Source: Bacillota bacterium (GTDB lineage: Bacteria > Bacillota > Dethiobacteria > DTU022 > UBA8154). From it: a stretch of 64,000 nt of DNA. The DNA lies in the NCBI GenBank assembly GCA_030656575.1, contig JAUSPO010000030.1, positions 63,298 to 127,297 of the forward strand, written 5' to 3'. The position numbers were made by a program, and so were the translations under genes. The notes under the pieces were generated by a model. That model was not told the origin of the DNA, searched no databases, and saw nothing but the letters and a program-made list of their open reading frames with translations. Positions 4,689 through 50,017 of the stretch are shown here, piece after piece; the first letter of the stretch is position 1; each line of letters opens with the position of its first letter.

Positions 4689-4729
4689 AATTATTCTCCC
4701 TTTACCCTTTTCCTTTTACCCTTTTCCTT

Positions 4730-5542
4730 TTATAGTTTTTCCAAAAAGTTGAGAATTCCTTTATTCACTTCCATGCTTTTTTCCAGCATAGGAAGGTGTC
4801 CGCTTCCTGGTATTATTTCCAAATCCGCTTCGGGGATATTACCGGCAAGAAAACGGCTGTATTTTGGAGGTGTCATGAGATCCTGATCCCCGCAAAGTAC
4901 CAATGTAGGCACAAGAATATTCCAAAGCTGTTCCATTACGTCAAAATCATTACATGCTGTGAAATCAGCTAAAAAAACCCCGGGAGAAACAGCTGAGATT
5001 ATTTCCTTCCCTTTTTCAACTAACCCCTGATCTGCTTCTGGCCCATAAAGATATTTATACATTTCCGGAACAAGTTTTCCTTGGCGCAGTGTTTTCATAA
5101 ACCTATCCGCAACGCGCAGTCTTGCCCCTGTAGAAACCAAAATAAGACCCTTTAAATCGGCGGGATACTGCAGTAAGTAAGAAAGAGCAATAGCGCCGCC
5201 AAGGGAATGTCCTATCATAACAAAAGAAGGAAAGTTTAAGCTCTCTGTAAACTCCTTAATGTAATCACAGTAAAGAGATATCTTCTCAGCTGGAACTCCT
5301 GCCGATTTTCCGTGACCGGGAAGATCAACGGCAACGGGGGAAAACCGAATGGCCAGGTCCTTTAATTGATAATACCAAAGCAGACCGTTACTACCTGAGC
5401 CATGGATAAAAAGAAGTGGTGTTTTTGCTAAATCAGGTCTCCCATAGTAAGAGATTGTAAGTCCACTTTTTTTTAGAGTCGTAGAACCTTGTTCAACAGG
5501 CATAACAGTTCTCCTAAAGTGTATTGACAACCCTCTTTTCAT
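4730..5542 (-). CDS. alpha/beta-fold hydrolase
   Basis: Oxyanion/nucleophile motifs HGSGSNG and GHSLGG in a 270-aa protein. Confidence 0.7.
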   Translation of the reverse strand: MKRGLSIHFRRTVMPVEQGSTTLKKSGLTISYYGRPDLAKTPLLFIHGSGSNGLLWYYQLKDLAIRFSPVAVDLPGHGKSAGVPAEKISLYCDYIKEFTESLNFPSFVMIGHSLGGAIALSYLLQYPADLKGLILVSTGARLRVADRFMKTLRQGKLVPEMYKYLYGPEADQGLVEKGKEIISAVSPGVFLADFTACNDFDVMEQLWNILVPTLVLCGDQDLMTPPKYSRFLAGNIPEADLEIIPGSGHLPMLEKSMEVNKGILNFLEKL

Positions 5543-5676: not shown

Positions 5677-7074
5677 ATGAAAGGAGAAAATACAATGTCA
5701 AACGATTTAATTGTGAAGCGAAGGCTACTTAAAGTTGAAAAAGTCATTGGTGAAGATACTGTTCGCAGGACTGTGGCAGCAGATGTGGTCCTGCCATTTA
5801 AAGTATTAAAAGTTTTTGATGTCATTGCCCATGTTATGGCCGTTGAAACAGCAGTTCAGGAAGGTGGAGTGCGCGTTGCCGGTGTTGTTCATAAACAGCT
5901 TTTTGTCGTCGATCGAGGAGATATAGTACGGCATGTGGAGGAGGACATTCCTTTTGAGTTCCTTGTTCCTGTTGAAGGGGTTCTGCCTGGAATGAACGTT
6001 CAGACAAATATCCGTATTCTCGAAATAGATAAAACCTTGGTTGATCCCCAAACAGTAAGACAGGTTATTGTTTTAGAGATTTTTGTTAAGGTAACTGTTA
6101 CAAAACAGATTGAAGTAGTTGTGGATGTACGCGGCAAGGATATTATCGTCAAAAAAGAGTTACTAAAGGTTGACAGCGTGGTTGGAGAAGATACTGTCAG
6201 TCAGGTTATTACACCGGTGGCGACACTACCCATAGTTGCCAGGAAAATTTTCCGAATCATACCGTCAGTACGCAATGTAACGGCAGAAGTTCGAACTGAT
6301 ACGGTAATCGTGCGGGGAGTAATTCATAAGCAGGTCTTCCTTGTCGATGAAGGCGATCTGGTACGCCATGTGTCAGAAGATATTCCTTTTACAAATACAA
6401 TAGCTATACCTGGTGCCAGGCCAGGGATGGATGTGCAATTTGATGTGAGTGTTTTCCTGGAAGAATTTAAGTTAATAGATCCTCCCAGCCGAATGCTGCG
6501 CCAGGTTTTGACAATAGAAGCTTTTGTTAAAGTAACTGAAACGCTGCAGATCGAAGTTGTCATCGATGTCAAGGGTCGGAATATAGTCGTAAAAAGAAAA
6601 CTTCTGAAAGTTGAGTCCGTCGTCGTGGATGTCCTCCAGCAGGAGACGGTGCGAGCAGTTGTAAGATTGCCTGTCCAGGCCATTAAGATATTTGATATCA
6701 TGGCCAGCATTGTCAACCTTCAGGCGGAAGCCCGTTTTGACCAGGTAGTTGTGCGGGGGATACTGCACAAGCAGCTCTTCTTCGTTGACCCCGGCGGCCT
6801 GGTACGCCACGAAAGGGAGGATATACCCTTTACCTTTGTGAAATCGGCACCGGGTGCCCGTCCGGGGATGAATGTACAGGTGCGTGCCCGTATTATTGGT
6901 GATATTCGGGCCAGGATAATTGATAACAAGGGTTTGGAAATAGAGCAGGTTGCGGTTATTGAAATCTTTGCAAAAGTTACCCGTACGGTTCAGCTGGAAG
7001 TGGTGGTTGATGTAAAAAGAGTTTTACCTCCACCGAAGCCGTCAAATGACCCACAGCCTTCACCAGAAAGCTAA
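5677..7074 (+). CDS. DUF3794 (SPOCS-type) repeat protein, three internal repeats of about 150 aa; putative spore coat/sporulation protein
   Basis: Internal repeats begin LLKVEKVIGEDTV / LLKVDSVVGEDTV / LLKVESVVVDVLQ, each with HKQ(L/V)F.VD.GD.VRHV and PGARPGM(N/D)VQ. The gene is a paralog of the next one. Confidence 0.55.
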   Translation: MKGENTMSNDLIVKRRLLKVEKVIGEDTVRRTVAADVVLPFKVLKVFDVIAHVMAVETAVQEGGVRVAGVVHKQLFVVDRGDIVRHVEEDIPFEFLVPVEGVLPGMNVQTNIRILEIDKTLVDPQTVRQVIVLEIFVKVTVTKQIEVVVDVRGKDIIVKKELLKVDSVVGEDTVSQVITPVATLPIVARKIFRIIPSVRNVTAEVRTDTVIVRGVIHKQVFLVDEGDLVRHVSEDIPFTNTIAIPGARPGMDVQFDVSVFLEEFKLIDPPSRMLRQVLTIEAFVKVTETLQIEVVIDVKGRNIVVKRKLLKVESVVVDVLQQETVRAVVRLPVQAIKIFDIMASIVNLQAEARFDQVVVRGILHKQLFFVDPGGLVRHEREDIPFTFVKSAPGARPGMNVQVRARIIGDIRARIIDNKGLEIEQVAVIEIFAKVTRTVQLEVVVDVKRVLPPPKPSNDPQPSPES

Positions 7075-7149
7075 GGAGAAAAAGGTGATTATATTCATAG
7101 CTTAATCCCTATGATTATCTGAAACCTTTTATGTTTTCTTAATACCCCT

Positions 7150-7190
7150 GTAACACTACAGGGGTATCTTGTATATATTATAGTGAACCT
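7150..7190 (+). promoter_or_regulatory. candidate promoter for the second DUF3794 gene; includes the perfect palindrome CCCCTGTAACACTACAGGGG
   Basis: acccctgtaacactacaggggtatcttgtatatattatagtg. The TGTAACA to TATATA spacing (17 nt) is the same as at 5606-5650. The palindrome could also terminate the upstream gene. Confidence 0.3.
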
Positions 7191-7219
7191 TAAAAGCATA
7201 ATTGAAAGGAGGGTAAAAA

Positions 7220-8923
7220 ATGTCTGACCTTTTAGTCAAAAGACAATTACTTAAAGTTGATCGGGTAATTGGTGAGGATACGGTTCGGGAAACAGTTGAA
7301 GCCACCATTACACTGCCTTTTTCCATCATCAAAGTATTTGATGTAATCGCCAGCGTAACCGACATTGAAACTGAAACGAAGGAAGGAGGCGTTATGGTCT
7401 CCGGGGTTATTCACAAGCAGCTTTTTGTTGTGGATAAGGGAGATGTGGTACGCCATGTTCCTGAAGACGTTCCCTTTAGCGTCTTTGTAGATATTCCGGG
7501 GACGACCAATAATATGGACGCCCATGTGGATGTGCGCATCCTTGCCCTGGACACAGAAGTGCTAGAATACGGTAAGAAAGTGCGGCAAACCATTGTTCTG
7601 GAGATATTTGTCAAAGTTACCACCATCCAACAGATCGAAGTAGTTATCGATGTTCTTGGTAAGGATATCATCGTCAAAAAAGAACTGCTTAAGGTAGATA
7701 GTGTGGTCGGAGAGGACACTGCAGTCTTTACTCTTACCCCTACCGCAACTCTGCCCATAACGGCCAAGAAAATCTTTCGCATCATCCCTTCAGTGCGTGA
7801 TGTAAGCGCAGAGGTAAAGGAGAACACCGTGATTGTGAAGGGTGTCATCCACAAGCAGATTTTCCTCGTTGATGAAGGGGATCTGGTGCGCCATGTCGCT
7901 GAGGATGTTCCCTTTACCCGGACGGTCGATATTCCCGGTGCCAGGCCTGGTATGGATGTGCAGGTGAGAGTCAGGGTAGTACTTGAAGATTTTCAGTTAG
8001 TTAATCCTCCCAGCCGTCAGCTGCGCCAGACCCTTGTTGTGGAAGCCTTTGTGAAGGTTACGGAGGTACTTCAGATCGAAGTAGTGGTTGATGTGCAGGG
8101 TAGGGGCATTGAGGTAATCAAAAAGCTTCTCAAAGTGGAAAGCGTGGTTGTAGATGTGCGTCAGAAAGAGACGCTCCGCTCGACTGTAACCCTGCCGCAG
8201 AAGCCTACCAAGATTCTCGAGATTGTGGCCGAAATTGTCAACCTGAGGGCGGAGGCCCGTACCGACCAGGTGATCGTGAAGGGTATTCTCCATAAACAGA
8301 TCTTCTTTGTGGAAGAAGCAGGAGACCTGCTGCGCCACTTCCGGGAAGATGTGCCCTTTACCTTTGTAAAGACGGCCAGAGGGGCACGTCCGGGTATGAA
8401 CGTGCAGGTCCGGGCCAGTATTGTCGGAGAGATCATAACCAGGCTTAACGGCAGAGAACTGGAACAGACCGCCGTGATCGATATCTTTGCGAAAGTCACC
8501 CGCACGGTCCAACTTGAAGTATTAGTCGATGTAAGAAGAGTAGCGCCAGTTCCGCCAGTTCCGCCAGTTCCGCCGATTCCGCCGTTCCCGCCGAAGCCGC
8601 CACCGCTGGCGAAGAAGTACATTGTGCAGAAGGGTGATACTCTCTGGAAAATCGCCAAGCGCTTTGGGGTATCACTGGATGCCCTTATCAGGGCAAATCC
8701 ACAGATCCAGAATCCCGATCTGATTTTCCCGGGTGATGTTGTCTTTATTCCCGAAGTACATGTGCCAAAGCCTCCCACAAAGAGGTATGTAGTCCAAAAG
8801 GGAGATACTCTCTTTCTCATTGCCAAGCGCTTTGGGGTATCACTGGATGCTCTTATCAGGGCCAATCCACAGATTGCGAATCCTAACCTGATTTTCCCTG
8901 GAGATATAGTATTTATTCCTTAA
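7220..8923 (+). CDS. DUF3794 repeat protein with a Pro-rich linker and two C-terminal LysM domains (SipL/SpoVID-like morphogenetic coat protein candidate)
   Basis: Four DUF3794-like repeats, then PVPPVPPVPPIPPFPPKPPP, then two LysM units (YIVQKGDTLWKIAKRFGVSLDALIRANPQI.NP.LIFPGD.VFIP). Confidence 0.6.
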   Translation: MSDLLVKRQLLKVDRVIGEDTVRETVEATITLPFSIIKVFDVIASVTDIETETKEGGVMVSGVIHKQLFVVDKGDVVRHVPEDVPFSVFVDIPGTTNNMDAHVDVRILALDTEVLEYGKKVRQTIVLEIFVKVTTIQQIEVVIDVLGKDIIVKKELLKVDSVVGEDTAVFTLTPTATLPITAKKIFRIIPSVRDVSAEVKENTVIVKGVIHKQIFLVDEGDLVRHVAEDVPFTRTVDIPGARPGMDVQVRVRVVLEDFQLVNPPSRQLRQTLVVEAFVKVTEVLQIEVVVDVQGRGIEVIKKLLKVESVVVDVRQKETLRSTVTLPQKPTKILEIVAEIVNLRAEARTDQVIVKGILHKQIFFVEEAGDLLRHFREDVPFTFVKTARGARPGMNVQVRASIVGEIITRLNGRELEQTAVIDIFAKVTRTVQLEVLVDVRRVAPVPPVPPVPPIPPFPPKPPPLAKKYIVQKGDTLWKIAKRFGVSLDALIRANPQIQNPDLIFPGDVVFIPEVHVPKPPTKRYVVQKGDTLFLIAKRFGVSLDALIRANPQIANPNLIFPGDIVFIP

Positions 8924-36960: not shown

Positions 36961-38078
36961 TATGCTTACTGTTTTAAAGGAACAATGGTCAAAACAAAAA
37001 GAGAGGTTTGAAGAATGGGGGAGGTCTCTTTGACCTCGAGGATAAAAGGAAAAAGGTAAAAATGCTCGAGGAGACAGCCGGTAAACCTGAGTTTTGGAAC
37101 AAATCCGAAGACGCCTCCAAAATCATGCAGGAGATTTCTTTGTTAAAAGAAAGGGTCGAGTCTTATGATCGCTTAGCAGAATTTCTGGAAGAATGGGAAG
37201 TCCTTCTACAGCTTTATGAGGAGTATGATCACGAAGATAATCATGAACTCCTCAAAGAGGCTGAGGATATAAATTCACAGATAGATAAACTGCTGGAGAA
37301 GGAAGAACTTCGCCTCCTCTTTAAAGGTCGCTACGATGAGAACAACGCCATTCTCGCTATCCACCCCGGGGCCGGAGGTCTGGATGCCCAGGATTGGGCA
37401 GAAATGCTTTTGCGCATGTATACCCGCTGGGCAGAGAAGAAAGGCTATACAGTAGAAGTGCTGGATCTGTTACCCGCTGATGAAGCAGGGATTAAAAGTG
37501 TAACGTTCCTTGTCCAGGGAGAAAAAGCGTATGGATATCTTCAGGCGGAGCGTGGTGTTCACCGCCTCGTACGAATATCTCCATTTGATACGGGCGGCAG
37601 GAGACATACATCCTTTGCCTCAATAGACGTTCTGCCGGAAGTGAAAGAGGGTGTTGATGTGGAGATAAATCCCGATGATTTAAGGATCGATACTTATCGT
37701 GCCAGCGGGGCCGGGGGGCAGCATATCAATACCACTGATTCTGCTGTAAGGATTACACATATACCTACAGGATTAGTGGTACAGTGCCAGAATGAGCGGT
37801 CACAACATAGTAATAAAGAAAGCGCTATGCATATACTACTGGCAAAATTGGCTGATTTAACACAGCGACGGCAGAAAGAAGAACTGCATGCCTTAAGGGG
37901 TGAGCAGAAAGAGATTGCCTGGGGCAGTCAGATACGTTCTTATGTTTTTCATCCATATTCCCTTGTAAAAGATCATCGCACAGGTGCTGATACAGGGAAC
38001 ATCCAGGCAGTAATGGACGGGGAGATAGAGCTTTTTCTGGGGGCTTTTCTTCGCTACAGCTCACAGTTAGCAGATTAA
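36961..38078 (+). CDS. prfB: peptide chain release factor 2, expressed through a programmed +1 frameshift
   Basis: A frame-0 ORF MLTVLKEQWSKQKERFEEWGRSL ends at CTT TGA C (about 37021-37027) and is preceded by the SD-like GGGGGAGG. The +1 frame continues as DLEDKRKKV... through SPF, the GGQ motif (RASGAGGQHINT), to 38078. Confidence 0.85.
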
Positions 38079-38119
38079 ATCAAAAACAAATAGGATTCCT
38101 CAGGGGGCCCGTCGAAATA

Positions 38120-38956
38120 ATGCTTAGAAAATATATTTGGGATCTGATTGGCATTATTATTGGAACAGCTGTAATGGCTGTCTCCTTTAATATGTTTCTT
38201 ATTCCAAACAAAATCGCGGCTGGTGGTATAAGCGGCCTGGGTGTTATTTTGTTCCACCTTTTCCAGGTACCTGTAGGACTGACGGTCTTATTAGCGAATG
38301 TGCCCCTCTTTATTTTGGCTTGGTCTGTGCTGGGTTGGAGAATTGTGGCCCACAGCCTGGCAGGCACGATTCTCCTGCCTTTTATGTTAGAGCTTACTGC
38401 TTTCCTTCCTCTTGTTACCAAAGACCTGCTCCTGGCTTCTGTTTTCGGAGGTATAGGAGCGGGATTGGGAATAGGTCTTGTTTTCCGTTCACAGGGTACG
38501 ACAGGCGGGACAGCGCTGGTGGCTCAGCTTTTTAACCGCTTCTGGGGATTCAGCAGCGGGCAGAGCCTTATTGGAGCAGATCTGGTGATCATAGTCGCCG
38601 CCGGATTTTTCTTTGACGCTGAGGTAGCATTATTTGCTTTATTATCTCTTTTTGTCAGCGGTAAAGTGATAGATATTGTACAGGAAGGGTTTTCTTTTTC
38701 AAAAGCAGCCCTTATTATCAGCGAGAAAAAACAGGACGCCATAACCGAAAAAATTTTTGAAGAGCTGGGGCGTGGTGCAACCTTCCTGGATGGAAGGGGC
38801 GCCTATTCCGGGGATCAAAAAGGTATAATTCTTTGTATTGTTTCCCAATCACAGGTAACACGCCTCAAAAATATAGTCAGAGAGATTGATCCTTTAGCTT
38901 TTGTAATTGTAAGCAATGTAGGAGAGGTGCTGGGAGAAGGATTTGGACCAATATAA
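38120..38956 (+). CDS. YitT-family membrane protein (DUF161/DUF2179)
   Basis: Multi-TM N-terminus and C-terminal DUF2179 pattern. Confidence 0.75.
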   Translation: MLRKYIWDLIGIIIGTAVMAVSFNMFLIPNKIAAGGISGLGVILFHLFQVPVGLTVLLANVPLFILAWSVLGWRIVAHSLAGTILLPFMLELTAFLPLVTKDLLLASVFGGIGAGLGIGLVFRSQGTTGGTALVAQLFNRFWGFSSGQSLIGADLVIIVAAGFFFDAEVALFALLSLFVSGKVIDIVQEGFSFSKAALIISEKKQDAITEKIFEELGRGATFLDGRGAYSGDQKGIILCIVSQSQVTRLKNIVREIDPLAFVIVSNVGEVLGEGFGPI

Positions 38957-38992
38957 TCATTTTAGAATACATTTAATAAAGGGGGAATAAAG

Positions 38993-39823
38993 GTGCCGGC
39001 AATTTTGGCTGCTGTATTGGAAGAATTAAGAGTGAAAGCAAGGGACTTACGCAAAGATATTATCACAATGATTTATAAAGCCGGTTCTGGCCATCCGGGA
39101 GGTTCACTGTCTGTTATCGATATTTTAGTGGTCTTGTATTACAAGGTTATGAATATTAACTCTGGTAATTATCTGGATCCCCAAAGAGACAGGCTGGTTT
39201 TAAGCAAAGGGCACGCATGTCCTGCACTTTATGCTGTTCTGGCAGACAAGGGGTTTTTCTCTCGTACTTTTCTTGATACCCTGCGCAAAATCGATTCCCC
39301 GCTTCAGGGGCATCCCGACATGCTAAAGACTCCGGGGATAGAAATCTCCACTGGATCACTTGGTCAGGGACTTTCTGCAGCTAACGGCATGGCCCTGGCA
39401 GCCCGTCTGGATAATTCCAAACGCCGTACATACGTAATTCTTGGGGATGGTGAGCTTCAGGAAGGCCAGATATGGGAGGCAGCCATGTCTTCAGCTCATT
39501 ACAGGTTGGATAATCTTACTGCATTTTTAGATTATAACGGCCTGCAGATAGACGGATGGACCCGTGATGTGAAATCAACCGATCCTATTGTGGATAAATG
39601 GCGCTCTTTTGGCTGGCATGTGCTGGAAGTTGACGGCCATGATTATGCTTCTCTCCTTGAAGCAGTGGGAAGGGCCCATGCTTATAAAGGGGCTCCCACG
39701 ATGATCATAGCCCATACTGTGAAAGGTAAAGGGGTTTCCTTTATGGAAAATCAAATAGATTGGCATGGCCAGGCTCCGAATAAGGAACAATACGAAATAG
39801 CGCTTGCAGATTTAGAAAAGTGA
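38993..39823 (+). CDS. transketolase, N-terminal (TPP-binding) subunit
   Basis: GHPGGSLS and GDGELQEG motifs. Confidence 0.85.
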   Translation: MPAILAAVLEELRVKARDLRKDIITMIYKAGSGHPGGSLSVIDILVVLYYKVMNINSGNYLDPQRDRLVLSKGHACPALYAVLADKGFFSRTFLDTLRKIDSPLQGHPDMLKTPGIEISTGSLGQGLSAANGMALAARLDNSKRRTYVILGDGELQEGQIWEAAMSSAHYRLDNLTAFLDYNGLQIDGWTRDVKSTDPIVDKWRSFGWHVLEVDGHDYASLLEAVGRAHAYKGAPTMIIAHTVKGKGVSFMENQIDWHGQAPNKEQYEIALADLEK

Positions 39824-39824
39824 G

Positions 39825-40784
39825 ATGGAGGGGAATACTTTGACGGAAAAGGCAGCTACAAGGGATGCATACGGCAAGGCTCTGGTGGAGTTAGGACGAC
39901 GGATTGAGAAGGTTGTTGTCCTTGATGCAGACCTTTCAAAATCAACAAAGACAGTATTGTTTGCCGAGGAATTTCCCCTGCGTTTTTTTAATATGGGGAT
40001 TTCTGAAGCTGATATGATGGGGACCGCTGCGGGTCTGGCAGCTTCTGGTTATATTCCATTTGTGAGCACATTCGGCGTTTTTGCCACGGGCAGAGTTTAT
40101 GACCAGGTGCGTAACTCTATAGCCTATACCAAGTTGAACGTAAAAATTGCAGCTACACATACAGGTCTTACAGTAGGCGAAGACGGGGCTTCACACCAGA
40201 CCGTGGAAGATATTGCCCTGATGCGCGTTTTACCAAATATGATCGTCGTTGTGCCTGCTGATGCTGGACAAACCTATCAGGCTGTTGAAGCTGTTGCAGA
40301 ATATGAAGGCCCTGTTTACCTGCGCCTGGGGAGGCCAAAAGTTCCGCACGTTGTCCCTGAAGGCACACCCTTTGAAATTGGCAAAGCACAGATTCTCAGG
40401 GAAGGAAAAGATCTTCTTTTTATTGCAACAGGAATTATGGTGGGAGCTGCTCTGGATGCGGCCGCGCTCATGGAAAAACAGGGCGTCAATGCCGCGGTGC
40501 TAAATGTACATACTATTAAGCCGCTGGACGAGAAGCTTATTCTCCAAATGGCAGCCGAAGCAGGAGCCATTGTCACTGCCGAGGAACACAGTATTATGGG
40601 AGGTCTGGGAGGTGCGGTTGCTGAAATTATTTCCGAAAATTACCCTGTGCCTGTGATAAGAGTAGGGGTAAATGATACCTTCGGAGAATCCGGCTCACCT
40701 GACGACTTACTTATCAAGTATGGTTTGACTGCTGAAAAACTGGTCGAAGCTGGACAGAAGGCTTTGGAGATGAAAAGAAGGTAG
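39825..40784 (+). CDS. transketolase, C-terminal (pyrimidine-binding) subunit
   Basis: Split-tkt partner; starts 2 nt after the N-terminal subunit gene. Confidence 0.85.
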   Translation: MEGNTLTEKAATRDAYGKALVELGRRIEKVVVLDADLSKSTKTVLFAEEFPLRFFNMGISEADMMGTAAGLAASGYIPFVSTFGVFATGRVYDQVRNSIAYTKLNVKIAATHTGLTVGEDGASHQTVEDIALMRVLPNMIVVVPADAGQTYQAVEAVAEYEGPVYLRLGRPKVPHVVPEGTPFEIGKAQILREGKDLLFIATGIMVGAALDAAALMEKQGVNAAVLNVHTIKPLDEKLILQMAAEAGAIVTAEEHSIMGGLGGAVAEIISENYPVPVIRVGVNDTFGESGSPDDLLIKYGLTAEKLVEAGQKALEMKRR

Positions 40785-41046
40785 TGTGTAGAATGGGGTG
40801 TTGAGGGCTGGAGTTCGCTCCAAGTTCTACGGTTCAGCTCGGGTTTCCGGCACCTTCCCGGCAAATCCCTATCAAGGTCTTCTGAAAGAAAAAGACAAGG
40901 GGACAGGGACTTGTCTGATGAAATAATGTTTTAAAAAGCCAGGTGAAATTTGGAGAAAAGCGTGATACCCAAGAAATAAGTAACCGATCAAAGATCTGCG
41001 GGAGAGCAGGCATAAAAAAAAGAATAGACAAGTCTCTGACCCCTTG

Positions 41047-41082
41047 TCTGACCCCTTGTCTGACCCTTTGTTCAAAGTCGGT
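41047..41082. repeat. tandem 12-mer (CTGACCCCTTGT)x3 with an inverted partner at 40893-40918
   Basis: Direct read: ctgaccccttgtctgaccccttgtctgaccctttgt. Upstream, agacaaggggacagggacttgtctga is palindromic and contains the complementary motif. Confidence 0.8.
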
Positions 41083-41124
41083 GGAAAATGCACTGGTCAA
41101 AGCACAGAAAAGGTAAGATAGGTA

Positions 41125-41610
41125 CTAGTTGTGGGCCTTGCGTTCCCGTTTGCGTTCGGCCAGCCTGATCTTCCGTCTTTCGATGGCATCCTGATTGCGC
41201 CTTTTCTCCTCGTCGGTCTTTAGAACAAGAGGGGGAACGCTTTTGGTCTTTCCATGCTCATCTAGCGCAACAAAGGTGAGGTAGGCCGAAGAGGTGTGAC
41301 GGTTGTGGCCTGTGATGACGTTTTCCGCTTCCACCCTGACGCCTACCTCCATGGAGGATGTTCCGACAAAGTTCATGTTGGCGCTCAGTTTGAGGAGCTC
41401 ACCCACATAGACAGGACTGTGAAAATCAAGCCTGTCTATGGATGCGGTCACGACGTTACATGAGGCATGTCGTGCTGCAACTATGCCGGCGGTGCTGTCA
41501 ATTAAACGCATAATTGAACCGCCGTGAACATTTCCCGCCAGATTTGCGTCGGTTTGTATCATCTGTTGTACGATAAACACTGTGCTTTCGCTTACGGTTT
41601 TACCTTTCAT
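41125..41610 (-). CDS. acyl-CoA thioesterase (hot-dog fold, YciA/BFIT type)
   Basis: NVHGGSIMRLIDSTAGIVAARH...VTASIDRLDF. Confidence 0.75.
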   Translation of the reverse strand: MKGKTVSESTVFIVQQMIQTDANLAGNVHGGSIMRLIDSTAGIVAARHASCNVVTASIDRLDFHSPVYVGELLKLSANMNFVGTSSMEVGVRVEAENVITGHNRHTSSAYLTFVALDEHGKTKSVPPLVLKTDEEKRRNQDAIERRKIRLAERKRERKAHN

Positions 41611-41784
41611 GGCAACCTCCGGTTCTCTATCGGACAGTTCGTGACCAAAGTGGGATTTAGGAGATCATTTACTGCAGATTTCTGGATTAATTATAGCTAT
41701 ATTTTGCCATCTAAGTCAACTGAGTTAGAAAACTAGGTATGACACGGTTTAGTTGTTTTATTTAATAATTCCCCTATTTAAAAA

Positions 41785-41814
41785 GTTGTCAATAACCCCG
41801 TCCCCTTGTCAACC
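41785..41814. promoter_or_regulatory. conserved 28-30-bp motif GTTGTCAATAACCCCGTCCCCTTGTCAAC (copy 1 of 2)
   Basis: 27/28 identical to 47778-47806. On the minus strand it reads TTGACA-N15-TTGACA, lying between the hemolysin-III stop and about 175 bp upstream of the thioesterase start. Confidence 0.3.
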
Positions 41815-41818
41815 ACAA

Positions 41819-42463
41819 TTACAGCGGCAGGATAAAAAATATGGCAAAGAAATGACATATGCTTCCGGCCAATACAAATAAGTGCCAGATGGCATGATGC
41901 AGCAGTTTACCTTTTTGGACATAGAAAATAATCCCCAGGGTATAAGAGAGGCCCCCCGCTCCCAGGAAAATTAATGATATGCCGGCCAGGTTTGCAAACA
42001 GGGAACGGATGGAGAAGACAATCAACCAGCCCATCAAGAGGTAAAACAAGGTTGACAAAACGGCATATTTGTTGACGAAAAAAACCTTGAGGACTACCCC
42101 CAGTATGGCCAGGCCCCAAACCAAACCGAAGATGACCCAGCCATATTCCTCTCGCAGGGTCACCAGGGTCAGCGGGGTATAAGTTCCAGCAATTAACAGA
42201 AAAATGGCGGCATGATCAATTATGCGAAAAATATATTTAACCCTTTTGTTCTGAATGCTATGATAGAGCGTTGAGGCCAGGTAAAGCAATACCAGGGTTG
42301 AACCGTAAATACTGAAACTAACAACATGCCAGGGCCCCCCGTACCTGGTGGCAAATACGATTAGTATTACCAGGGCCGCTATTGCCAGGACTGCTCCGAT
42401 TCCGTGGGTAATGGCGTTGGCTATTTCATTGATAATTAAGGTCTTTCTGTTAGAATATTTCAT
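41819..42463 (-). CDS. hemolysin III / PAQR family membrane protein
   Basis: Seven TM helices; N-terminus NEIANAITHGIG. Confidence 0.8.
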   Translation of the reverse strand: MKYSNRKTLIINEIANAITHGIGAVLAIAALVILIVFATRYGGPWHVVSFSIYGSTLVLLYLASTLYHSIQNKRVKYIFRIIDHAAIFLLIAGTYTPLTLVTLREEYGWVIFGLVWGLAILGVVLKVFFVNKYAVLSTLFYLLMGWLIVFSIRSLFANLAGISLIFLGAGGLSYTLGIIFYVQKGKLLHHAIWHLFVLAGSICHFFAIFFILPL

Positions 42464-42664
42464 CGCTTGCTCCTATAAGGATGTATTTAAAAAGTATACC
42501 ATTATTTCACTACGATGCCTATCAAACTGATCACACCCAAAAGAGCGGTAAAGGATAATATTGCTTATTCCTTCTTTACATCCCTTTTGTTACTTCAAGG
42601 GGAACAAATTCGACAGCTTAAAATAACATAATAGTAGTTTAAAGTAGCTCCAGTCCCAGGGATT

Positions 42665-43365
42665 TTGGATATCCTGAAAGTGAGGAGTGCAATGCTTGAT
42701 CTTATTATTATCGGTGGAGGACCAAGTGGAGCTTCTGCAGCACAAAAAGCAGCATCGGTGGGTTTAAATGTACTTTTATTTGAAAAGGAGAAGTTCCCAG
42801 GTATAAGCCTTGCGGAGGGGCCGTATCAGAACGAGCGCTTTCTTACATTGGACATAGTATTCCCGAATCATTAATAGAAAACGAAATTTTTGGAGTTAGA
42901 ATTCAGTATAAAGGTCAAACGATTGAAAGGTTAAAAGACGACAGGATTATCATTCCGTCGGTGTGCCCTAAAGGAAAGCTTGCCGGGAGAAGAACACTAT
43001 TATGCGGAGATGCTGGCGGCTTTGTGGATGCTTTTTCCAGAGAAGGCATTGCCTATGCCATCCGCTCGGGACAAATCGCTGCCGAAAAGATAGCGGAAAT
43101 TATCAAGGAAAAAAGAACATCAAGCATGGGCTCTTATGAAAAAGCATGCCGAAAAGAGTTCGATGAAAACTTGCAGTACTCTCATACAGTATCAAAGTAT
43201 ATATACAAATTTCCTGCGCAGTTCTTTAATGCATTTATCCGTGATGACAGGCTTTTAGATCAACTCTTGGACATTCCCATTATGAAAACAACGTATAAAA
43301 AAATCCTGTTCAATTTGCTGCGAAATTCTTATCATCATTTGCCAGGGCTATCTTTAAAGAATTAA
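42665..43365 (+). pseudogene. geranylgeranyl-reductase-family FAD oxidoreductase remnant (frameshift plus large internal deletion)
   Basis: N-terminal fragment DLIIIGGGPSGASAA (FAD GxGxxG); the frame then switches to ...IENEIFGVRIQYKG.... The C-terminal fragment LLCGDAGGFVDAFSREGIAYAIRSG follows after only about 200 codons in total, versus about 380 expected. Confidence 0.55.
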
Positions 43366-43377
43366 AGGGGTAACGTT

Positions 43378-43740
43378 CTATTGCTCGTCTTGCGATTCGG
43401 GCTCAGGAGAGGGAGCAACTCTTCTTGTGCGCAAGAGATAGGGATGGAAAAATATTTCCACTACCGCAATAAGGGCACCGAAAAAAAGTAGAGACCCTAA
43501 GTTAGGATTAAACACGGTCGTCACCAAGCCCATAATATAAGCAACAACAATACCAAGGGCACCATCTCCAACGGATGCTATCAAATAATTAAAACCCGGT
43601 AAAACATATAAGTCTCCGACTAGATGGTTCACAACGGTAGCAGCTACGGCTACAAAGAAGACCACTCCTGCAGGGTTTACGTCAAAAAAAGAAAAGGCAA
43701 TGATAGAGACAATAAAGGTGATAATAAATCTTACGAGCAT
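43378..43740 (-). CDS. small membrane protein (DUF2512-like)
   Basis: 120-aa hydrophobic ORF. Confidence 0.4.
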   Translation of the reverse strand: MLVRFIITFIVSIIAFSFFDVNPAGVVFFVAVAATVVNHLVGDLYVLPGFNYLIASVGDGALGIVVAYIMGLVTTVFNPNLGSLLFFGALIAVVEIFFHPYLLRTRRVAPSPEPESQDEQ

Positions 43741-43877
43741 AACTTTCCACGTATTCAGAATAACATCTCCTTTTCAAGATTATTATATACCTTGTTAATT
43801 TCCCTTCTTTTATGACATTTATGCAAATACAGAGTCCCTTGAATAAAACACAATTATAAAATACCTTTTAGAAACAA

Positions 43878-44306
43878 CTAATAACCAATTTCCTCTTTTC
43901 CCATTCTACTGGTAAGGTAGTCTGCGGTCCTGGCTGCAATAGCCAAAACCGTTTCGGTGGGGTTGGCGCCACCGGAAGTTACGAAGACGCTGGCGTCGCA
44001 GATAAACAGGTTTGGTATATCATGGCTTTGACAAAAGCCATTAACTACAGATTTTGTTGGGTCATCTCCCATGCGGCAGGTTCCCATCAGGTGTCCGGTA
44101 TCCGGAATTACAAAAGCCGGTTTGCCACCTCTTGCTACCATTATTGCATTAGCCTTCTGTACAGCATGTTTAATCAATTTATTGTCATTTTCCCCAAAAC
44201 TAAAGGTTACTATAGGTCGCGGCAGTCCATATTCGTCTTTCTCATCACTTAAAGTTTCGTTACCTGTATTTTGTATTTTACTGCAGTAGATAGTTCGCCC
44301 AGGCAC
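43878..44306 (-). pseudogene. GMC-family oxidoreductase C-terminal fragment
   Basis: HLMGTCRMGDDPTKSVVNGFCQSHDIPNLFICDASVFVTSGGANPTETVLAIAARTADYL is the GMC_oxred_C pattern. Only 142 aa remain and the N-terminal roughly 350 aa are absent. Confidence 0.5.
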
Positions 44307-44530
44307 ATTAATAAGCCGCCCGATGCAACCTGTCCGGTAATCGCCAGAACTGGTGCCTTATCAAAATAAGCATCAGCTAAACCATTAATCAGATTTGCTG
44401 TACCCGGACCGGATGTTGCGACACAGACTGCTGTTTTACCGGTTAACTTAGCCTGGTATGATGCCATGAATGCAGCAATAGACTCATGACTTGTAATTCC
44501 AGAAGTTGTTGAGACAGATTAAGAGGAGGC
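44249..44530 (-). pseudogene. acetolactate-synthase-like TPP enzyme N-terminal fragment, fused and overlapping with the GMC fragment
   Basis: ...[54 protein letters not shown] with an in-frame stop; it ends inside the GMC remnant. Confidence 0.5.
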
Positions 44531-44709
44531 ATTTTATTAACTTCCTTCCAATACGTTAGAATTTTTTTTAGCATACCACAGCTTACCACTAATAATGCAG
44601 TAAAAAAAATCGTTTTTTGGAACCATGAATTTTTACTTTAAAGTCAGGAAATTATAACGATGAAGAAAAAACTGCATGGATAATGCAGGGAATAAGGAAG
44701 GAGATTATA

Positions 44710-45762
44710 ATGAAAAAATTAAGAATGGGTATTATCGGTATGGGCATGGCTTTTGAAAGATTACATTATCCTGCTTATCAGAAATTAACCGATAAGTTTG
44801 AGATTCGGGCAATTTGTGACCTGGATAGACAAAAGGCGGAAAACTGGCGTAACACTCTTGGTTTAAATCCGGAAGATATATATAATGATTTTCATGAAAT
44901 GCTTAAGCGGGACGACCTGGATGCAATTGATATTATGGTTCCCATTGAGCTGAACTATGAGGTTACGGAAGAGGTTGCTAAAGCAGGAAAGCCAATAATC
45001 TGTGAAAAACCTCTGGCCCCCACAAGAGAACAGGCCATGGAGGCTAGAGCGTTACCGAAAAAATATGATGTTCCTATTATGATTGCAGAAAATTATCGCT
45101 ATAACGATGAAATCAATATAATTCGGGATCTGGTCAGGACTAAAGATATTGGAGATGTTTATTATTTAATCCAAAATAGAGTGGTTAACTTTCCTCATGA
45201 TATGCTAAAAAATAAATTTCCCGCTAAAGAATGGCGGCAGCATCCGGAATTTCCCGGAGGAGTTTATTATGATACGGGAGTTCATGACATAGGAGCCCTT
45301 CAACATATTTTTGGATCCATTGATACTGTTCATGCATTTGGAGTAAAACAGGAAGAAGATTTCTCTCCTTATTCAGTAATCCAGGCTAATCTTCTTTTCA
45401 AAAGCGGAATTACCGGTCATTTTACTTTCTTCTGCGCAGGAAAAGAAATGCAGAGGCCTTTTGTTGGTTTGCGTATTTTCGGGAACAATGGCATGATTTA
45501 TCTTGAAGAGAGAGATTGTGGTACCGTAAATGTTGCGTATAATGATGGAACCAGCAAACAAATTCCATATCAGCCCCAGATGGGATTCTACCATGAATTA
45601 CTGAATTTCTACAAAGCGGCTATTGGGGAAGAACGTAATGCAGTAACTCCAGAACTCGAATATGGTGATGCAATGACTATTTATGCTATTTTAGAATCCA
45701 TAAAAAACGAAGAAATAGTTAAGGTAGTTAAAGAATTAGAGTATGAACCTATGGGTGTATAA
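44710..45762 (+). CDS. Gfo/Idh/MocA-family NAD(P)-dependent oxidoreductase
   Basis: LRMGIIGMGMAFERLHYPAY Rossmann N-terminus and ICEKPLA motif. Confidence 0.8.
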   Translation: MKKLRMGIIGMGMAFERLHYPAYQKLTDKFEIRAICDLDRQKAENWRNTLGLNPEDIYNDFHEMLKRDDLDAIDIMVPIELNYEVTEEVAKAGKPIICEKPLAPTREQAMEARALPKKYDVPIMIAENYRYNDEINIIRDLVRTKDIGDVYYLIQNRVVNFPHDMLKNKFPAKEWRQHPEFPGGVYYDTGVHDIGALQHIFGSIDTVHAFGVKQEEDFSPYSVIQANLLFKSGITGHFTFFCAGKEMQRPFVGLRIFGNNGMIYLEERDCGTVNVAYNDGTSKQIPYQPQMGFYHELLNFYKAAIGEERNAVTPELEYGDAMTIYAILESIKNEEIVKVVKELEYEPMGV

Positions 45763-45824
45763 GAATAAATAAGAGTCTACTATTTCAGTTTAGGGGCACC
45801 CTAAATACTTAAGTGAGGGCAACC

Positions 45825-46985
45825 ATGCACACACGGGAAATGGCATTTCCTGCCTGGTCCGGACTTGATATGCCGGCTGCTAATTGCAATGTAATAACTC
45901 CTTCATTTCCGGAACCCCTATCAGAAGAACAACTTGTTAAAAAAATTGAGCACGCAGTTGAAATGCTTGCGCGGCAAACGCTGTCTGCCGCGCAGCGTAT
46001 CCTAATCATTGTAGAGGACTCGTCCCGCCCTTCACGCACTGCGCCTGTGATAGAAACACTGCTCCGGGTCATTGCCCCCCGCTTACCCAATGACGTCTCC
46101 TTTAAAATGCTTTTCGCCGGAGGTGCCCATTATGGGCTGGAAGAAAAAAATGAATTTAATAAAGCTCCAGCGAAATTTCCCGGACCAATCTTAACACATA
46201 ACTGCTTGGAAACATCCTATTACGGGGATATCGATGGTAAGCCGGTTTTTCTGAATCGGGAAGTTGATACTGCAGATCTGCGCATCTCCATTGGCACAGT
46301 AAACATACATCCTGTGTCCGGCTATACTGGTGGAGCAAAAATACTTGTCCCAGGGGTTGCCGGCTTAAGGACCATTTTTTGCCTTCATGAATTAGAAAGA
46401 GGCAGTCCCGGAGAGGCGGTAACTCCGATGCGTCGTTTTATCACTAATGTACTTGAAGGCCATCCCATTGAACTTGGATTGCAGCTAATAGCAAATGGAA
46501 AAGGAGAGATCGTCAATCTCTTTGTCGGTCCTCTGCAGCAAGCCTGGGATAAGGCTATAGAGTTCTTGAAACCGTGCGTTACACGCAATATCCCGGAATT
46601 AAGCAATATTTGTATAGCTGAAGCAGATCCGTATGACGGTAATTTGCTGGGGATTTTTAAAACACTTCCAGTTCTTATTGCTGCAATGACTGCGAACGGG
46701 CATGGGGTAATCCTAATCAGAGCAATGGAGGGACTGGGTCACCATCACTGGCGTTTAGAGAGTGAAGTAGTAAATAGAGAAAAACAAAGATGGGAAGAAC
46801 AATTGGCAGAGAGGCGTGTTACAGTAATTACAGAAGCTTTACTTGATGCTGCTGCTTGGAAGCATATCTTTCCCATGCAGTTGCAAGCTGTACAGCCAGG
46901 GGAAATAAAAATAGCTAAAAACAAAAAAGCACTGGTTTTGAAAAATGCGCCCCTGATGCTGATTAAAGAAAAGGATAGCCGGTAA
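45825..46985 (+). CDS. LarA-like (nickel-dependent lactate racemase family, DUF2088) protein
   Basis: IIVEDSSRPSRT (DxTRP-like) and FAGGAHYGL (AGGxH-like); moderate resemblance only. Confidence 0.45.
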   Translation: MHTREMAFPAWSGLDMPAANCNVITPSFPEPLSEEQLVKKIEHAVEMLARQTLSAAQRILIIVEDSSRPSRTAPVIETLLRVIAPRLPNDVSFKMLFAGGAHYGLEEKNEFNKAPAKFPGPILTHNCLETSYYGDIDGKPVFLNREVDTADLRISIGTVNIHPVSGYTGGAKILVPGVAGLRTIFCLHELERGSPGEAVTPMRRFITNVLEGHPIELGLQLIANGKGEIVNLFVGPLQQAWDKAIEFLKPCVTRNIPELSNICIAEADPYDGNLLGIFKTLPVLIAAMTANGHGVILIRAMEGLGHHHWRLESEVVNREKQRWEEQLAERRVTVITEALLDAAAWKHIFPMQLQAVQPGEIKIAKNKKALVLKNAPLMLIKEKDSR

Positions 46986-47129
46986 TTAAAAATATGCAAA
47001 TGTTTGGAGCTCTCTTGGAGATATTAGCAGCACGATATTGAGTACCAATCCTTTGTGTTAAAAAACCCACAATGTCTTCTTCCTAAAACGAAGAGGTTTT
47101 TTTGTTTGGATCATTCGCTACGGAAAGTA

Positions 47130-47668
47130 CTAATGCTTTTCCTTTTTTTCTCTCCGGGTCCTCACTTTTTTCACTCGGCGGAATTCTGTACGGTTACCGG
47201 CCTCGTCTTCAGCAGCTACAGAAAAGGTATAGCTTTTGCCGGGTTCAAGGTTGGAAACAATATAAGTGGTATTATCTGTCTCCCCCACAAACACACCGTT
47301 TACCAAAACACTGTATTTAATTTGCCCAGAGTTATCACTGGCAGGTGGCCATTTAATCGTTACACTGTCAGGCATTACCTTTGTAACTTTTATTACGTCT
47401 CCTTTTGACCAGGATGGATTCACTGTGTCATACTTGAGGGTAATGAAAGCCGCGTTTTGATAAGCGGCGTGACCATGTTCATCCTGCAGCCAGACATACA
47501 GATGCTGCTACTTCTTCTGCCGCCGTTACAGTAAAGGGGTTCTTGGTCACATATATGCCGTCGGTATCGCCAGTGGGCGGCACACCCAAAATTTAATAGA
47601 AATATTCCAACACCACCGATTGCTCCGGCAACTAGACCTGCAAAGAACCAATCACGAGTTTTCTTCAT
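47130..47668 (-). pseudogene. membrane-anchored fibronectin type III domain protein, disrupted by frameshifts
   Basis: The N-terminal TM ORF (MKKTRDWFFAGLVAGAIGGVGIFLLNFG) and the Fn3 ORF (VIKVTKVMPDSVTIKWPPASD...YTFSVAAEDEAGN) lie in different frames. Open protein-like stretches in all three frames occur between 47420 and 47600. Confidence 0.4.
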
Positions 47669-47777
47669 TATCTAACCAACTCACTTTAATAAATAGTAAT
47701 TAAATCAAATTGATATTATTTTGTTTAATCGTAAAAATAATATGCCTATGATATGGGATATTAATCTTTAGGAAATG

Positions 47778-47806
47778 TTGTCAATAACCCCGTCCCCTTG
47801 GCAACT
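47778..47806. promoter_or_regulatory. conserved motif GTTGTCAATAACCCCGTCCCCTTGGCAAC (copy 2 of 2)
   Basis: See 41785-41814. It lies about 110 bp upstream of the Fn3 pseudogene start on the minus strand. Confidence 0.3.
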
Positions 47807-48186
47807 TCTGCAAAAGATCGACTCCTTTCCTTATGGAAGGGAGTTTTTTTTATTGGGGGAAAAAAAAATGTAAATTATTGCATAAAAAATTGCTTTGATA
47901 AGAAGGGATTATTCGGGGGCTTGTCGAATAGTAACTCTTATCCATTTTATGTGGAATGTGTTTAACTAAGTATGTTTCCGTTAAAAAGAGCAAGTTATTC
48001 CCCGCTTTTCATATTGTTCCAAAGATTTTACAGGATTCTTTTTTCTTAAAATGGAGTAAAAGTTTCTCTTGGGGGAAACTAAATTTAAAATTGCAGAAAA
48101 TATTTTTAAAAAATGTCAGGAGGTGTAAAGTCTGGTGCGCTGAATTCTTATACTTTTTCGGGAATTTAGTTGTGCCAGGCGAGAAA

Positions 48187-49182
48187 ATGGCGGTAATTTA
48201 TTATGACAAGGATGCGGATTTATCTAATCTGAAGGGTGAAACAGTTGCTATCCTGGGTTATGGCAGTCAGGGGCATGCTCATGCCCAGAATTTGAAGGAA
48301 AGCGGAGTTAGTGTAGTTGTAGCCGATCTTCCAGGAAGCAAAAGCTGGGTGCAGGCTGAAAAGGACGGCCTCGTAGTCAAAAATGTTGCTGAAGCAACGA
48401 AGATGGCACAGGTAATCATGATCCTTTTAGGGGACAATGATCAGCCCGCTGTATTCCAGAATGAAGTTCTGCCAAATCTGACAGAAGGCAAGGCAATAGC
48501 TGTAGCTCACGGTTTTAATATTCTTTATAACCAGGTAGTTGCCCCTCCCTTTGTTGATGTGTTTATGGTCGCTCCCAAGAGCCCGGGACATCTGGTAAGG
48601 CGTATGTATCAGGAAGGAAACGGTGTCCCTGCGCTGGTGGCGGTGCACCAGGATTATACAGGGAAATGCCTGCAGAGAGCTCTTGCTTATGCAAAAGGAT
48701 TGGGCAGCACAAGAGCAGGTGTTATTCAGACCACTTTCCAGGAGGAAACAGAAACTGATTTGTTTGGTGAGCAGGCCATTCTTTGCGGTGGCGCGACAGC
48801 GTTAATCAAAGCTTCCTTTGACACCCTTGTAGAGGCTGGTTATCAGCCCGAGATTGCATATTTCGAGTGTCTTCATGAACTTAAATTGATTGTTGACCTG
48901 ATCTACGAGGGTGGCTTATCCTGGATGCGGTATTCTGTGAGCGATGTGGCCGAGTATGGTGATTTAACCAAGGGCCCCCGCATTATCGATGAAAGAGTCC
49001 GGGAAGAGTTGAAAAAATTACTGAAGGAAATTCAGGAAGGTCAGTTTGCGCTGGAATGTATTACTGAGTTCCGCATGAATCGCCCTCGCTTTACTGCTTT
49101 AAGGAGAATGGATGAGAATCATCTCATTGAAAAAGTGGGCGCGGAACTTCGTTCCATGATGCCCTGGTTGCAAAAAAAGTAA
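48187..49182 (+). CDS. ilvC: ketol-acid reductoisomerase
   Basis: [17 protein letters not shown]ossmann motif and class-I KARI length. Start reassigned to the ATG at 48187; the track ORF is extended upstream. Confidence 0.9.
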
Positions 49183-49330
49183 ACAATTAAAACCAAAAAA
49201 TGATCAATTTTCCATAATATGGCCAAAAATAAAAGAGGATATTACTGGATGCTGTCGAAGTAAAGTAAAACAATTACATTTTCCACCAAATATCTTTGAA
49301 TTTTTTAAGTAAAAGGGATTGGGCCATGTT

Positions 49331-50017
49331 ATGATCGAAATTAATCACCTTTATAAAGAGTACGGAAAAGATGTCCAGGCTTTAAATGATATTAATTTAG
49401 TTATTGACCGCGGTGAGTTTGTATTTATTGTAGGGACCAGCGGCGCAGGTAAATCTACCCTTCTGAGGATGATGATCAGGGAATCTTTACCTACGAAGGG
49501 AAGTATAAAAATCTTTGGCAGAGATATAACAAGGTTAAAAAACCGTGAGGTTCCCTACCTAAGGCGGAATATAGGTGTCGTTTTTCAGGATTTCAGGCTG
49601 CTAAATGACCGCAATGTTTATGAGAATGTGGCATTTACATTAAGGGTTATCGGGTCTCCTACAAAAGAGATTCGAAAAAGAGTCCCTCATGCATTGGAAT
49701 TGGTAAGGTTGAAAGATAAGGCCTACAAAAAACCGGATCAACTCTCCGGTGGTGAACAGCAAAGGGTTTGTGTTGCCCGGGCTTTAGTAAATCGTCCTGC
49801 TGTACTTCTTGCGGATGAGCCTACGGGCAACCTTGACCCCGGCACCTCCATGGAAATCATGAATCTTTTGCATGATATTAATATCAGGGGTGCAACGGTT
49901 ATTGTCGCTACCCATGCAAAGGAAGTTGTTGATCATTTTCAAAAACGTGTAGTTGTGCTCGAAGACGGACGTCTGATCAGCGATCAGGAAAGAGGGGTTT
50001 ATTTCAATGCACATTAG
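49331..50017 (+). CDS. ftsE: cell-division ABC transporter ATP-binding protein
   Basis: [24 protein letters not shown], and FtsX directly downstream. Confidence 0.85.

Follow-up and report, generated by a model that had tools for sequence, protein, structure and literature searches.

Published accounts of bacterial pseudogenes describe a deletional bias, in which genes that are no longer needed are first disrupted and then deleted, pseudogenes are purged fast and deletions exceed insertions (Kuo and Ochman 2009, PMC2817411; Kuo and Ochman 2010, PMC2916853; Danneels et al. 2018, PMC6054270). Here we consider positions 42692-44532 of a 64,000-nucleotide stretch of a metagenome-assembled genome (MAG) of a Bacillota bacterium (assembly GCA_030656575.1, contig JAUSPO010000030.1; the whole stretch is called the window), where pieces of a geranylgeranyl-reductase-family (GGR) gene and, on the opposite strand, of genes for a thiamine pyrophosphate (TPP)-dependent enzyme and a GMC flavoprotein dehydrogenase surround one small membrane protein gene. 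We argue that recent deletions very probably reduced 5.45 kb of accessory DNA, whose genes were no longer needed, to the present locus. It resembles deletional decay, as portrayed in those accounts, in that relatives stand at different stages and the remnants appear young, with a low ratio of non-synonymous to synonymous divergence (dN/dS) and few point lesions. It differs in being a single 2-kb patch in a well-packed core region rather than a case of genome-wide reduction, and in its mostly large lesions, four deletions of 101-2573 bp against one 1-bp indel. The locus is a further instance of a well-known process and leaves current understanding unchallenged.

Classical gluconate 2-dehydrogenase-type enzymes are membrane-associated and have three subunits, among them a cytochrome c. 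The operon whose remains we describe is similar in that its GMC flavoprotein gene (PF00732 and PF05199) is directly preceded by a Gluconate_2-dh3 gene (PF13618). It differs in that no cytochrome c subunit is seen, a membrane protein of ~130 aa without Pfam or NCBIfam match standing in its place, and in being tied to a TPP enzyme and a Gfo/Idh/MocA oxidoreductase (GFO) in anaerobic Bacillota, with scores below the equivalog cut-offs. A literature search on the Gluconate_2-dh3/GMC module turned up nothing relevant. The lost operon may have served sugar or polyol oxidation.

For the other two enzymes, the closest described families are TIGR02032, the geranylgeranyl reductase family, and TIGR00118, biosynthetic acetolactate synthase (ALS, IlvB). 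The two GGR pieces of the window match the two ends of the TIGR02032 model, whereas the window copy is frameshifted and lacks 157 central codons, and the equivalog cut-offs for ChlP, MenJ and DGGGPL reductase are not reached. The TPP fragment shares with IlvB the three-domain TPP-enzyme fold family, and its top NCBIfam matches include ALS models; it differs in that its full-length ortholog stays below the cut-off, is closest to pyruvate oxidase and has GFO and GMC genes as genomic partners.

Results

The open reading frames (ORFs) and the six-frame translation of window positions 42.7-44.5 kb reproduced every feature that a preliminary description of the locus had listed, in place and well above chance, and every fragment was recognised by Pfam and/or NCBIfam models, with E-values of 1e-11 to 1e-23 for the main matches. 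The comparison with close relatives that this description had proposed recovered the full-length gene order in L047, a 35-kb metagenome contig (JGI 3300076002, Ga0645779_12573): a leftward HlyIII gene, a rightward GGR gene of 390 aa, leftward genes for GMC, Gluconate_2-dh3, a 131-aa membrane protein and TPP enzyme, and rightward GFO and LarA-like genes, the first of these divergent from the TPP gene. The convergent GGR and GMC stop codons are 31 bp apart in L047. This relative was used for gene order and length; intactness was taken from more distant genomes (L025, L015, L043 and L013).

Mapped on L047 by blastn, the window falls into collinear blocks broken by four deletions. Window positions 42178-42514 correspond to L047 positions 1-335 (90% nucleotide identity), 42688-42948 to 593-854 (92%, one gap), 42948-43326 to 1325-1703 (84%), 43888-44255 to 1760-2127 (93%), 44259-44320 to 4701-4762 (89%), 44322-44494 to 5736-5908 (87%) and 44493-47000 to 6010-8507 (86.5%). 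From the start codon of the GGR gene to that of the TPP gene, the distance is 1841 bp in the window and 5453 bp in L047.

The GGR gene survives as a 5' part at 42692..42948 (plus strand; TIGR02032 positions 2-37, E = 4.6e-11) and a 3' part at 42949..43365 (plus strand; positions 257-297, E = 5e-12). It starts with the ATG at 42692 and the FAD-binding GxGxxG N-terminus MLDLIIIGGGPSGASAAQ..., and the frame runs into stops after 'EKEKFPG'; homology continues in the next frame with RYKPCGGAVSERAL... and later LLCGDAGGFVDAFSREGIAYAIRSG..., down to the stop at 43365. The frameshift noted in the preliminary description is confirmed as a 1-bp loss in a run of T, the window having TT (42794-42795) where L047 and a further relative, L122, have TTT in a three-way alignment. 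The internal deletion is likewise present, its size relative to L047 being 471 bp, or 157 codons, and not about 170 codons as first estimated; it is in frame, with its junction at 42948/42949. Since 157 codons are gone, the gene would be dead even without the 1-bp change. The 3' ORF (42961-43365) has 134 aa, and its last 39 nt (43327-43365) form a lineage-specific tail. Other GGR homologues among the matches listed measure 371-392 aa, the best being P0006 (390 aa, 78% identity to the frame-corrected query), the protein encoded on L047. Against the TIGR02032 subfamily cut-off of 158.8 bits the two window pieces score 43 and 46, and P0006 scores 228.8, from which it follows that the ancestral gene was a member of the family and that the remnant is not a complete one.

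Three pieces of the TPP gene remain, all on the minus strand: the start and first ~13 codons (44495..44532; the L047 protein starts MPPLNLAQQLLDL), an N-terminal (PYR) piece (44322..44494; TPP_enzyme_N, E = 1.9e-14) and a C-terminal (PP) piece (44259..44320; TPP_enzyme_C, a weak match at E = 0.0042). By tblastn, window positions 44491-44327 correspond to residues 74-128 of the TPP ortholog in L025 (85% amino acid identity) and 44329-44261 to residues 453-475 (E = 2.5e-5). Right after codon 13, a frameshifting deletion of ~101-103 bp (junction 44494/44495) interrupts the gene, and it is this frameshift that had been taken for an in-frame stop. A second deletion, which had gone unnoticed, removed 973 bp and left a 1-nt filler, C, at 44321; with a net loss of 972 bp it is in frame and brings the N domain up against the C domain.

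The GMC gene retains its last ~125 codons and stop (43878..44255, minus strand; GMC_oxred_C, E = 2.6e-23). Homology begins at 44255, at residue ~420 of 540 in the full-length GMC proteins of L043, L015 and L020 (residues ~420-540); the window has only PF05199 (83.5 bits) and not PF00732, while the L043 and L047 orthologs have both. Between the TPP and GMC pieces lies a 3-nt filler, TTC (44256..44258), at the point where 2573 bp are missing relative to L047, so that TPP codon ~475 is joined to GMC codon ~420. Judged by the content of L047, this deletion took the 3' end of the TPP gene, both middle genes of the operon (for the 131-aa membrane protein and for Gluconate_2-dh3) and ~420 GMC codons. 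The comparison supports what the preliminary description had proposed, namely that a deletion fused two genes that were once separate, and shows that these lay in the same orientation. The 58-bp overlap that it reported does exist between two ORFs (44249-44306), one of 142 aa at 43878-44306 with the GMC C-terminus as its last ~125 residues, the other of 72 aa at 44249-44467 in the TPP N-domain; it is purely mechanical, the homology junction lying at 44256-44258. Nor were the TPP and GMC enzymes unrelated, as had been thought, for in L047 a single operon begins with the TPP gene and ends with the GMC gene, and their partners recur beside GFO genes elsewhere. An origin of the junction by inversion, starting from the convergent arrangement of GMC and TPP genes in L013, was considered and dropped, since the co-oriented order of L047 requires a deletion alone.

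A search for long direct repeats at the ends of the four deletions found none; the junctions show microhomology of 1 nt (GGR) and 2 nt (5' end of TPP) or, at the other two, short filler (TTC and C). With no long repeats and only 0-2 nt of microhomology or short filler, the deletions would have arisen by illegitimate recombination poor in microhomology, through end-joining or slippage at minimal homology.

The fragments remain 84-93% identical in nucleotide sequence to the full-length genes of L047. Their dN/dS relative to it is 0.05-0.30 (0.07 for the GMC remnant) at a dS of 0.2-0.6, and the only stop codons are those arising from the frameshifts. This suggests that inactivation and deletions are recent and that most of the divergence from L047 accrued under selection. 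The short ORFs of 134, 142 and 72 aa are single-member clusters among 15 billion proteins; relatives have the full-length genes or nothing, and none carries such ORFs as genuine small proteins. On the combined strength of homology, truncation or frameshift, and short ORFs conserved as such nowhere else, we regard the locus as a set of pseudogene remnants, presumably inactive.

Further relatives place the window within a series. L122 (JGI 3300075907), 96% identical to L047, has an intact HlyIII gene without the indel of L047 and a GGR gene open over at least 200 codons, including the region deleted in the window. In a second relative, represented by three independent assemblies (L119, L120 and L121, from ENA, JGI and Logan; 88-91% nucleotide identity), a leftward thioesterase gene and a leftward HlyIII gene are followed after ~95 bp by the rightward GFO gene, and the 5.8 kb corresponding to L047 312-6125 are wholly missing. 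Close relatives thus show three states (L047, the window and L119-L121), which bears out the earlier suggestion of a variable region, and the claim of gene decay itself stands on the homologies, the deletion map, the full-length relative and the complete loss in another.

Gene neighbourhoods were counted as partner genes within 8 kb of a GFO ortholog at 44 Bacillota loci. The TPP gene is found at 16 of the 44, mostly directly adjacent and divergent, and the closest GFO loci among these are L001 (81-82% GFO identity) and L025 (77%); the triad of membrane protein, Gluconate_2-dh3 and GMC genes is found at 7. Many loci have neither; GFO can thus occur by itself, and L119-L121 are examples of this. 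The presence of the TPP gene near GFO at these 16 loci, the closest ones included, fits loss rather than gain, loss being the more parsimonious reading. Genome contigs searched with GFO yielded 45 loci, none more than 81% identical and none syntenic on the GGR/HlyIII side.

The same counts bring out a recurrent uncharacterised gene set near GFO in diverse Bacillota (L015, L043, L020, L013, L007, L023 and L035), consisting of the ~130-aa membrane protein (no family match), Gluconate_2-dh3, the GMC flavoprotein and the Gfo/Idh/MocA oxidoreductase. A pyruvate-oxidase-like TPP enzyme is usually nearby, in variable orientation, and no curated equivalog cut-off is reached. This association is perhaps worth functional study.

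A separate observation concerns the wider distribution of the GGR gene. Beyond a few close Bacillota relatives, most of the GGR matches that carry a source name come from Methanosarcinales (Methanolobus and Methanosarcina), at 39-61% identity, the majority of matches carrying no source name. This hints at an accessory gene perhaps exchanged between methanogens and this Bacillota lineage. Metagenome contigs searched with full-length P0006 gave no close relative, the best being a 2.4-kb contig at 55% identity.

Among the remnants, the preliminary description had recognised one intact small membrane gene, and rightly so: it encodes a DUF2512 protein of full family length (120 aa; 43378..43740, minus strand; PF10710, E = 1.6e-17; NCBI MDO9534214.1), scoring 63.8 bits against a Pfam gathering threshold of 26.5, with homologues of 120-131 aa at 63-77% identity. 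With its upstream region, the gene occupies a segment without counterpart in L047 (43327..43887 by blastn), ~510-560 bp where L047 has just 56 bp between the homologous flanks. Positions 43402-43831, covering the gene and 91 bp upstream of it, are 83% identical to L116, and positions 43397-43831 are 76% identical to L115. The two metagenomes that contain the nearest relatives are also the source of these contigs, in which DUF2512 has unrelated gene neighbourhoods. A homologue of 63% identity in L117 and L118 lies between aspartate-kinase-type and proC-type genes. These contexts favour a single-gene segment that would have been inserted or relocated in the window's lineage, the alternative being a putative loss from L047. 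A survivor of the decayed set is not supported, because the gene is absent at this site in the full-length relative and its nearest homologues have unrelated neighbours. The idea that it is the operon's 131-aa membrane protein gene in displaced form was also rejected, the two proteins matching at E = 0.86 only and Pfam finding DUF2512 in the one and nothing in the other.

The TPP fragment had been read as ilvB-like and the locus as the site of an eroded ilv operon, given an intact ilvC 4 kb away without partners. The ilvC gene is indeed intact (NF004017, 526 bits against a cut-off of 336), at ~3.6 kb from the TPP fragment, and the 64-kb window holds neither ilvB nor ilvN; its linkage to the pseudogene, and with it the erosion of an ilv operon, does not hold. 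The TPP ortholog of L025 (558 aa) has the three TPP-enzyme domains PF02776, PF00205 and PF02775 and scores 271.6 bits against TIGR00118, where the cut-off is 538.35; the two halves of the L047 protein score 154 and 101. Its best model is the pyruvate oxidase PRK08611 (373 bits, cut-off 742), and it reaches no NCBIfam cut-off among the best 25 of 54 matching families. In relatives the partner of the TPP gene is GFO, and in L047 it heads the operon with the membrane protein, Gluconate_2-dh3 and GMC genes. A tblastn search with ilvC gave no match at any of 45 GFO loci (ilvN was not queried), and synteny with L047 ends, on the right, before ilvC is reached, with ~770 bp of unrelated sequence between. 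The solitary ilvC is unrelated to the TPP pseudogene, because the TPP ortholog stays below the listed ALS cut-offs, ilvC stands outside the syntenic block and the window has no further ALS-type TPP gene.

Discussion

How could such a locus have come about? The accessory DNA would once have held a gene for a GGR-family FAD oxidoreductase and, on the opposite strand and divergent from GFO, a putative four-gene operon for a TPP-dependent enzyme, a 131-aa membrane protein, a Gluconate_2-dh3-type small subunit and a GMC flavoprotein dehydrogenase. Once these genes had become dispensable, at least four deletions (471, 2573, net 972 and ~101-103 bp) and a 1-bp loss would have followed, the largest of them fusing what remained of the TPP and GMC genes. 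The DUF2512 gene, with an upstream region of its own, would either have been inserted in the window's lineage or have been lost from the relative. Loss of selection would be the cause of the decay. The patch, in our view, represents a small piece of accessory DNA within a conserved backbone and does not belong to a genome-wide erosion.

Several points weigh against this account. The full gene order is known from one close relative only, whose sequence has its left end inside HlyIII. Within positions 1-8500 of L047, the HlyIII, GMC, TPP, GFO and LarA-like frames are themselves broken by 1-bp indels, mostly in short runs; GFO is in three pieces and the LarA-like gene in at least three, while the GGR, Gluconate_2-dh3 and membrane protein genes and a downstream CheB/CheR gene are open. 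The indels may be read errors, or decay may also have affected that strain, at genes that the window keeps intact. Owing to them, the notion of an intact ancestral operon rests on length and order in L047 together with the intact distant orthologs (L025, L015, L043 and L013). The DUF2512 difference can be read in either direction, as insertion in the window's lineage or as loss in L047. Finally, the assembly that reproduces the region, described below, was probably built from the same reads as the MAG.

Another possibility is that the locus was reshaped by a recombinogenic or mobile short element, or in one complex repair event with several breaks. In remnants that still resemble genes under selection, four large deletions beside only one small lesion would agree with such an origin, as would a 33-nt motif (TTGTCAATAACCCCGTCCCCTTGKCAAC) that occurs exactly twice in the window (41781-41813 and 47773-47805), as direct repeats 5,992 bp apart. 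The motif, AAAWGTTGTCAATAACCCCGTCCCCTTGKCAAC, consists of two TTGTCAA half-sites 21 bp apart; its copies are 94% identical, with 0 expected in shuffled sequences. In the window the copies flank the stretch from HlyIII to the LarA-like gene, bracketing the variable block; L047 has copies at 344-371 and 8557-8593, and L122 has one at the site matching L047 344. At three synteny breakpoints a copy lies at the breakpoint or within ~30 bp: the L047 copy at 344 is close to where homology ends, both with the window and with L119, that at 8565 is at the right end of synteny, and the left window copy (41781) falls inside ~90 bp missing from L119 and L122. Two perfect TTGACA hexamers on its minus strand suggest another reading, in which the motif may be a shared promoter or operator and no site of recombination. 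An Rfam scan of 40500-49500 (E <= 1) gave two sub-threshold chance matches and nothing at the 33-nt repeats, and no transposase or integrase match was obtained with ~30 proteins encoded from 29 kb to 63 kb, the genes before 29 kb lying outside the scan. We consider an element-driven or single-event origin unlikely, and retain the stepwise loss of dispensable genes.

It is very unlikely that the lesions are artefacts of assembly or sequencing, or a minority variant, with full-length genes in the real genome. The source is a MAG, the sole independent assembly comes from a single run, and the 1-bp difference in the T run is a change of the kind expected of errors. Against this, two assemblers agree: over 7836 bp (window 37401-45236), with all junctions inside, the Logan assembly made from run SRR13727525 shows 100% identity. 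Moreover, four deletions of this size without long repeats at their ends are unlike a de Bruijn collapse, and three independent assemblies of the second relative agree on an even larger loss there.

Could the short ORFs encode genuine small proteins or a functional chimera? NCBI's PGAP annotates the 134-aa ORF as a hypothetical protein (MDO9534213.1; the other entries in the region are MDO9534211.1 for HlyIII and that for DUF2512, with locus tags Q7J85_ on a 146-kb contig, and the GMC and TPP fragments are absent from the listed proteins). Two of the four deletions, those of 471 and net 972 bp, are in frame, and the fragment sequences are still well conserved. Yet two in four is near the chance expectation, and low dN/dS is expected of young pseudogenes, because the divergence from L047 mostly predates inactivation. 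The 134-aa GGR, 142-aa GMC and 72-aa mini-TPP products also form clusters of one, next to GGR homologues of full length, and would lack indispensable parts, namely the middle of GGR, the entire N-domain with which GMC binds FAD, and the bulk of the TPP enzyme. We therefore give the small-protein reading very little credence.

Scarcely credible is an eroded ilvB-ilvN-ilvC operon joined by two unrelated enzymes in a generic rearrangement hotspot, to which the ALS models among the best matches of the fragment and the nearby solitary ilvC seem to point, given a full-length TPP ortholog below each listed ALS cut-off and nearest to pyruvate oxidase models, a TPP gene that keeps company with GFO and not with ilvC, and the operon of L047.

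Loss of dispensable accessory genes by deletion, as we read the locus, has consequences for annotation. The label of pseudogene remnant suits the 134-aa 'hypothetical protein' as well as the ORFs of 72 and 142 aa, which are unannotated, and the TPP fragment should not be called ilvB. It also provides a three-stage series of the loss of an accessory operon, full length, shredded and gone, in an uncultured Bacillota lineage.

Genomic context

On the left, the locus is bordered by an intact HlyIII (hemolysin-III family) gene (41819..42463, minus strand; 214 aa; MDO9534211.1), which is 88-90% identical in nucleotide sequence to its relatives, with PF03006 recognised in L046 and L119; it is syntenic with L047, L122 and L119-L121. 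On the right stands the intact GFO gene (44710..45762, plus strand; PF01408, PF22725 and PF02894; 81% amino acid identity to L001), the divergent partner of the TPP gene, which is present in all relatives and adjoins HlyIII in L119-L121. It is under purifying selection (dN/dS 0.077 relative to L001). The intact LarA-like (Lar_N) gene (45813..46985, plus strand; PF09861, E = 9.6e-23) is far from the LarA equivalogs, with 119 bits against a cut-off of 500; with this gene the block syntenic with L047 ends on the right. Core genes flank the region on both sides: hisD/hisB, secA, prfB, a YitT-family gene and a split transketolase gene (tkt) on the left, and ilvC, ftsE, ftsX, an M23 peptidase gene, an S41 protease gene and uvrB/uvrA/uvrC on the right. 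Scans for promoters (23 against 16.2 +/- 4.3 in shuffled sequences) and terminators (8 against 6.7 +/- 1.9) gave no clear excess.

Between the LarA-like gene and the right copy of the 33-nt motif, ~770 bp of the window (47000-47764) are missing from L047. Three minus-strand ORFs in three frames (47420-47668, 47479-47589 and 47130-47423) supply a signal-anchor peptide, a middle piece and one FN3 domain. A search of representative proteins with the FN3 ORF (47130-47423) singled out no ortholog, all 150 matches listed being proteins of 719-7327 aa, mostly matched in several stretches. The three ORFs, so arranged, may derive from one small gene for an FN3 membrane protein, disrupted by two frameshifts, which would make it a further pseudogene candidate.

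The ilvC gene to the right of it corresponds to a mechanical ORF of 408 aa (47956-49182), in which ketol-acid reductoisomerase models begin at residue ~79-92; translation probably starts at the ATG of MAVIYYDKD, at about 48188. Between the 33-nt motif and ilvC, ~340 bp upstream of this ATG, there is a terminator-like hairpin (47820-47845).

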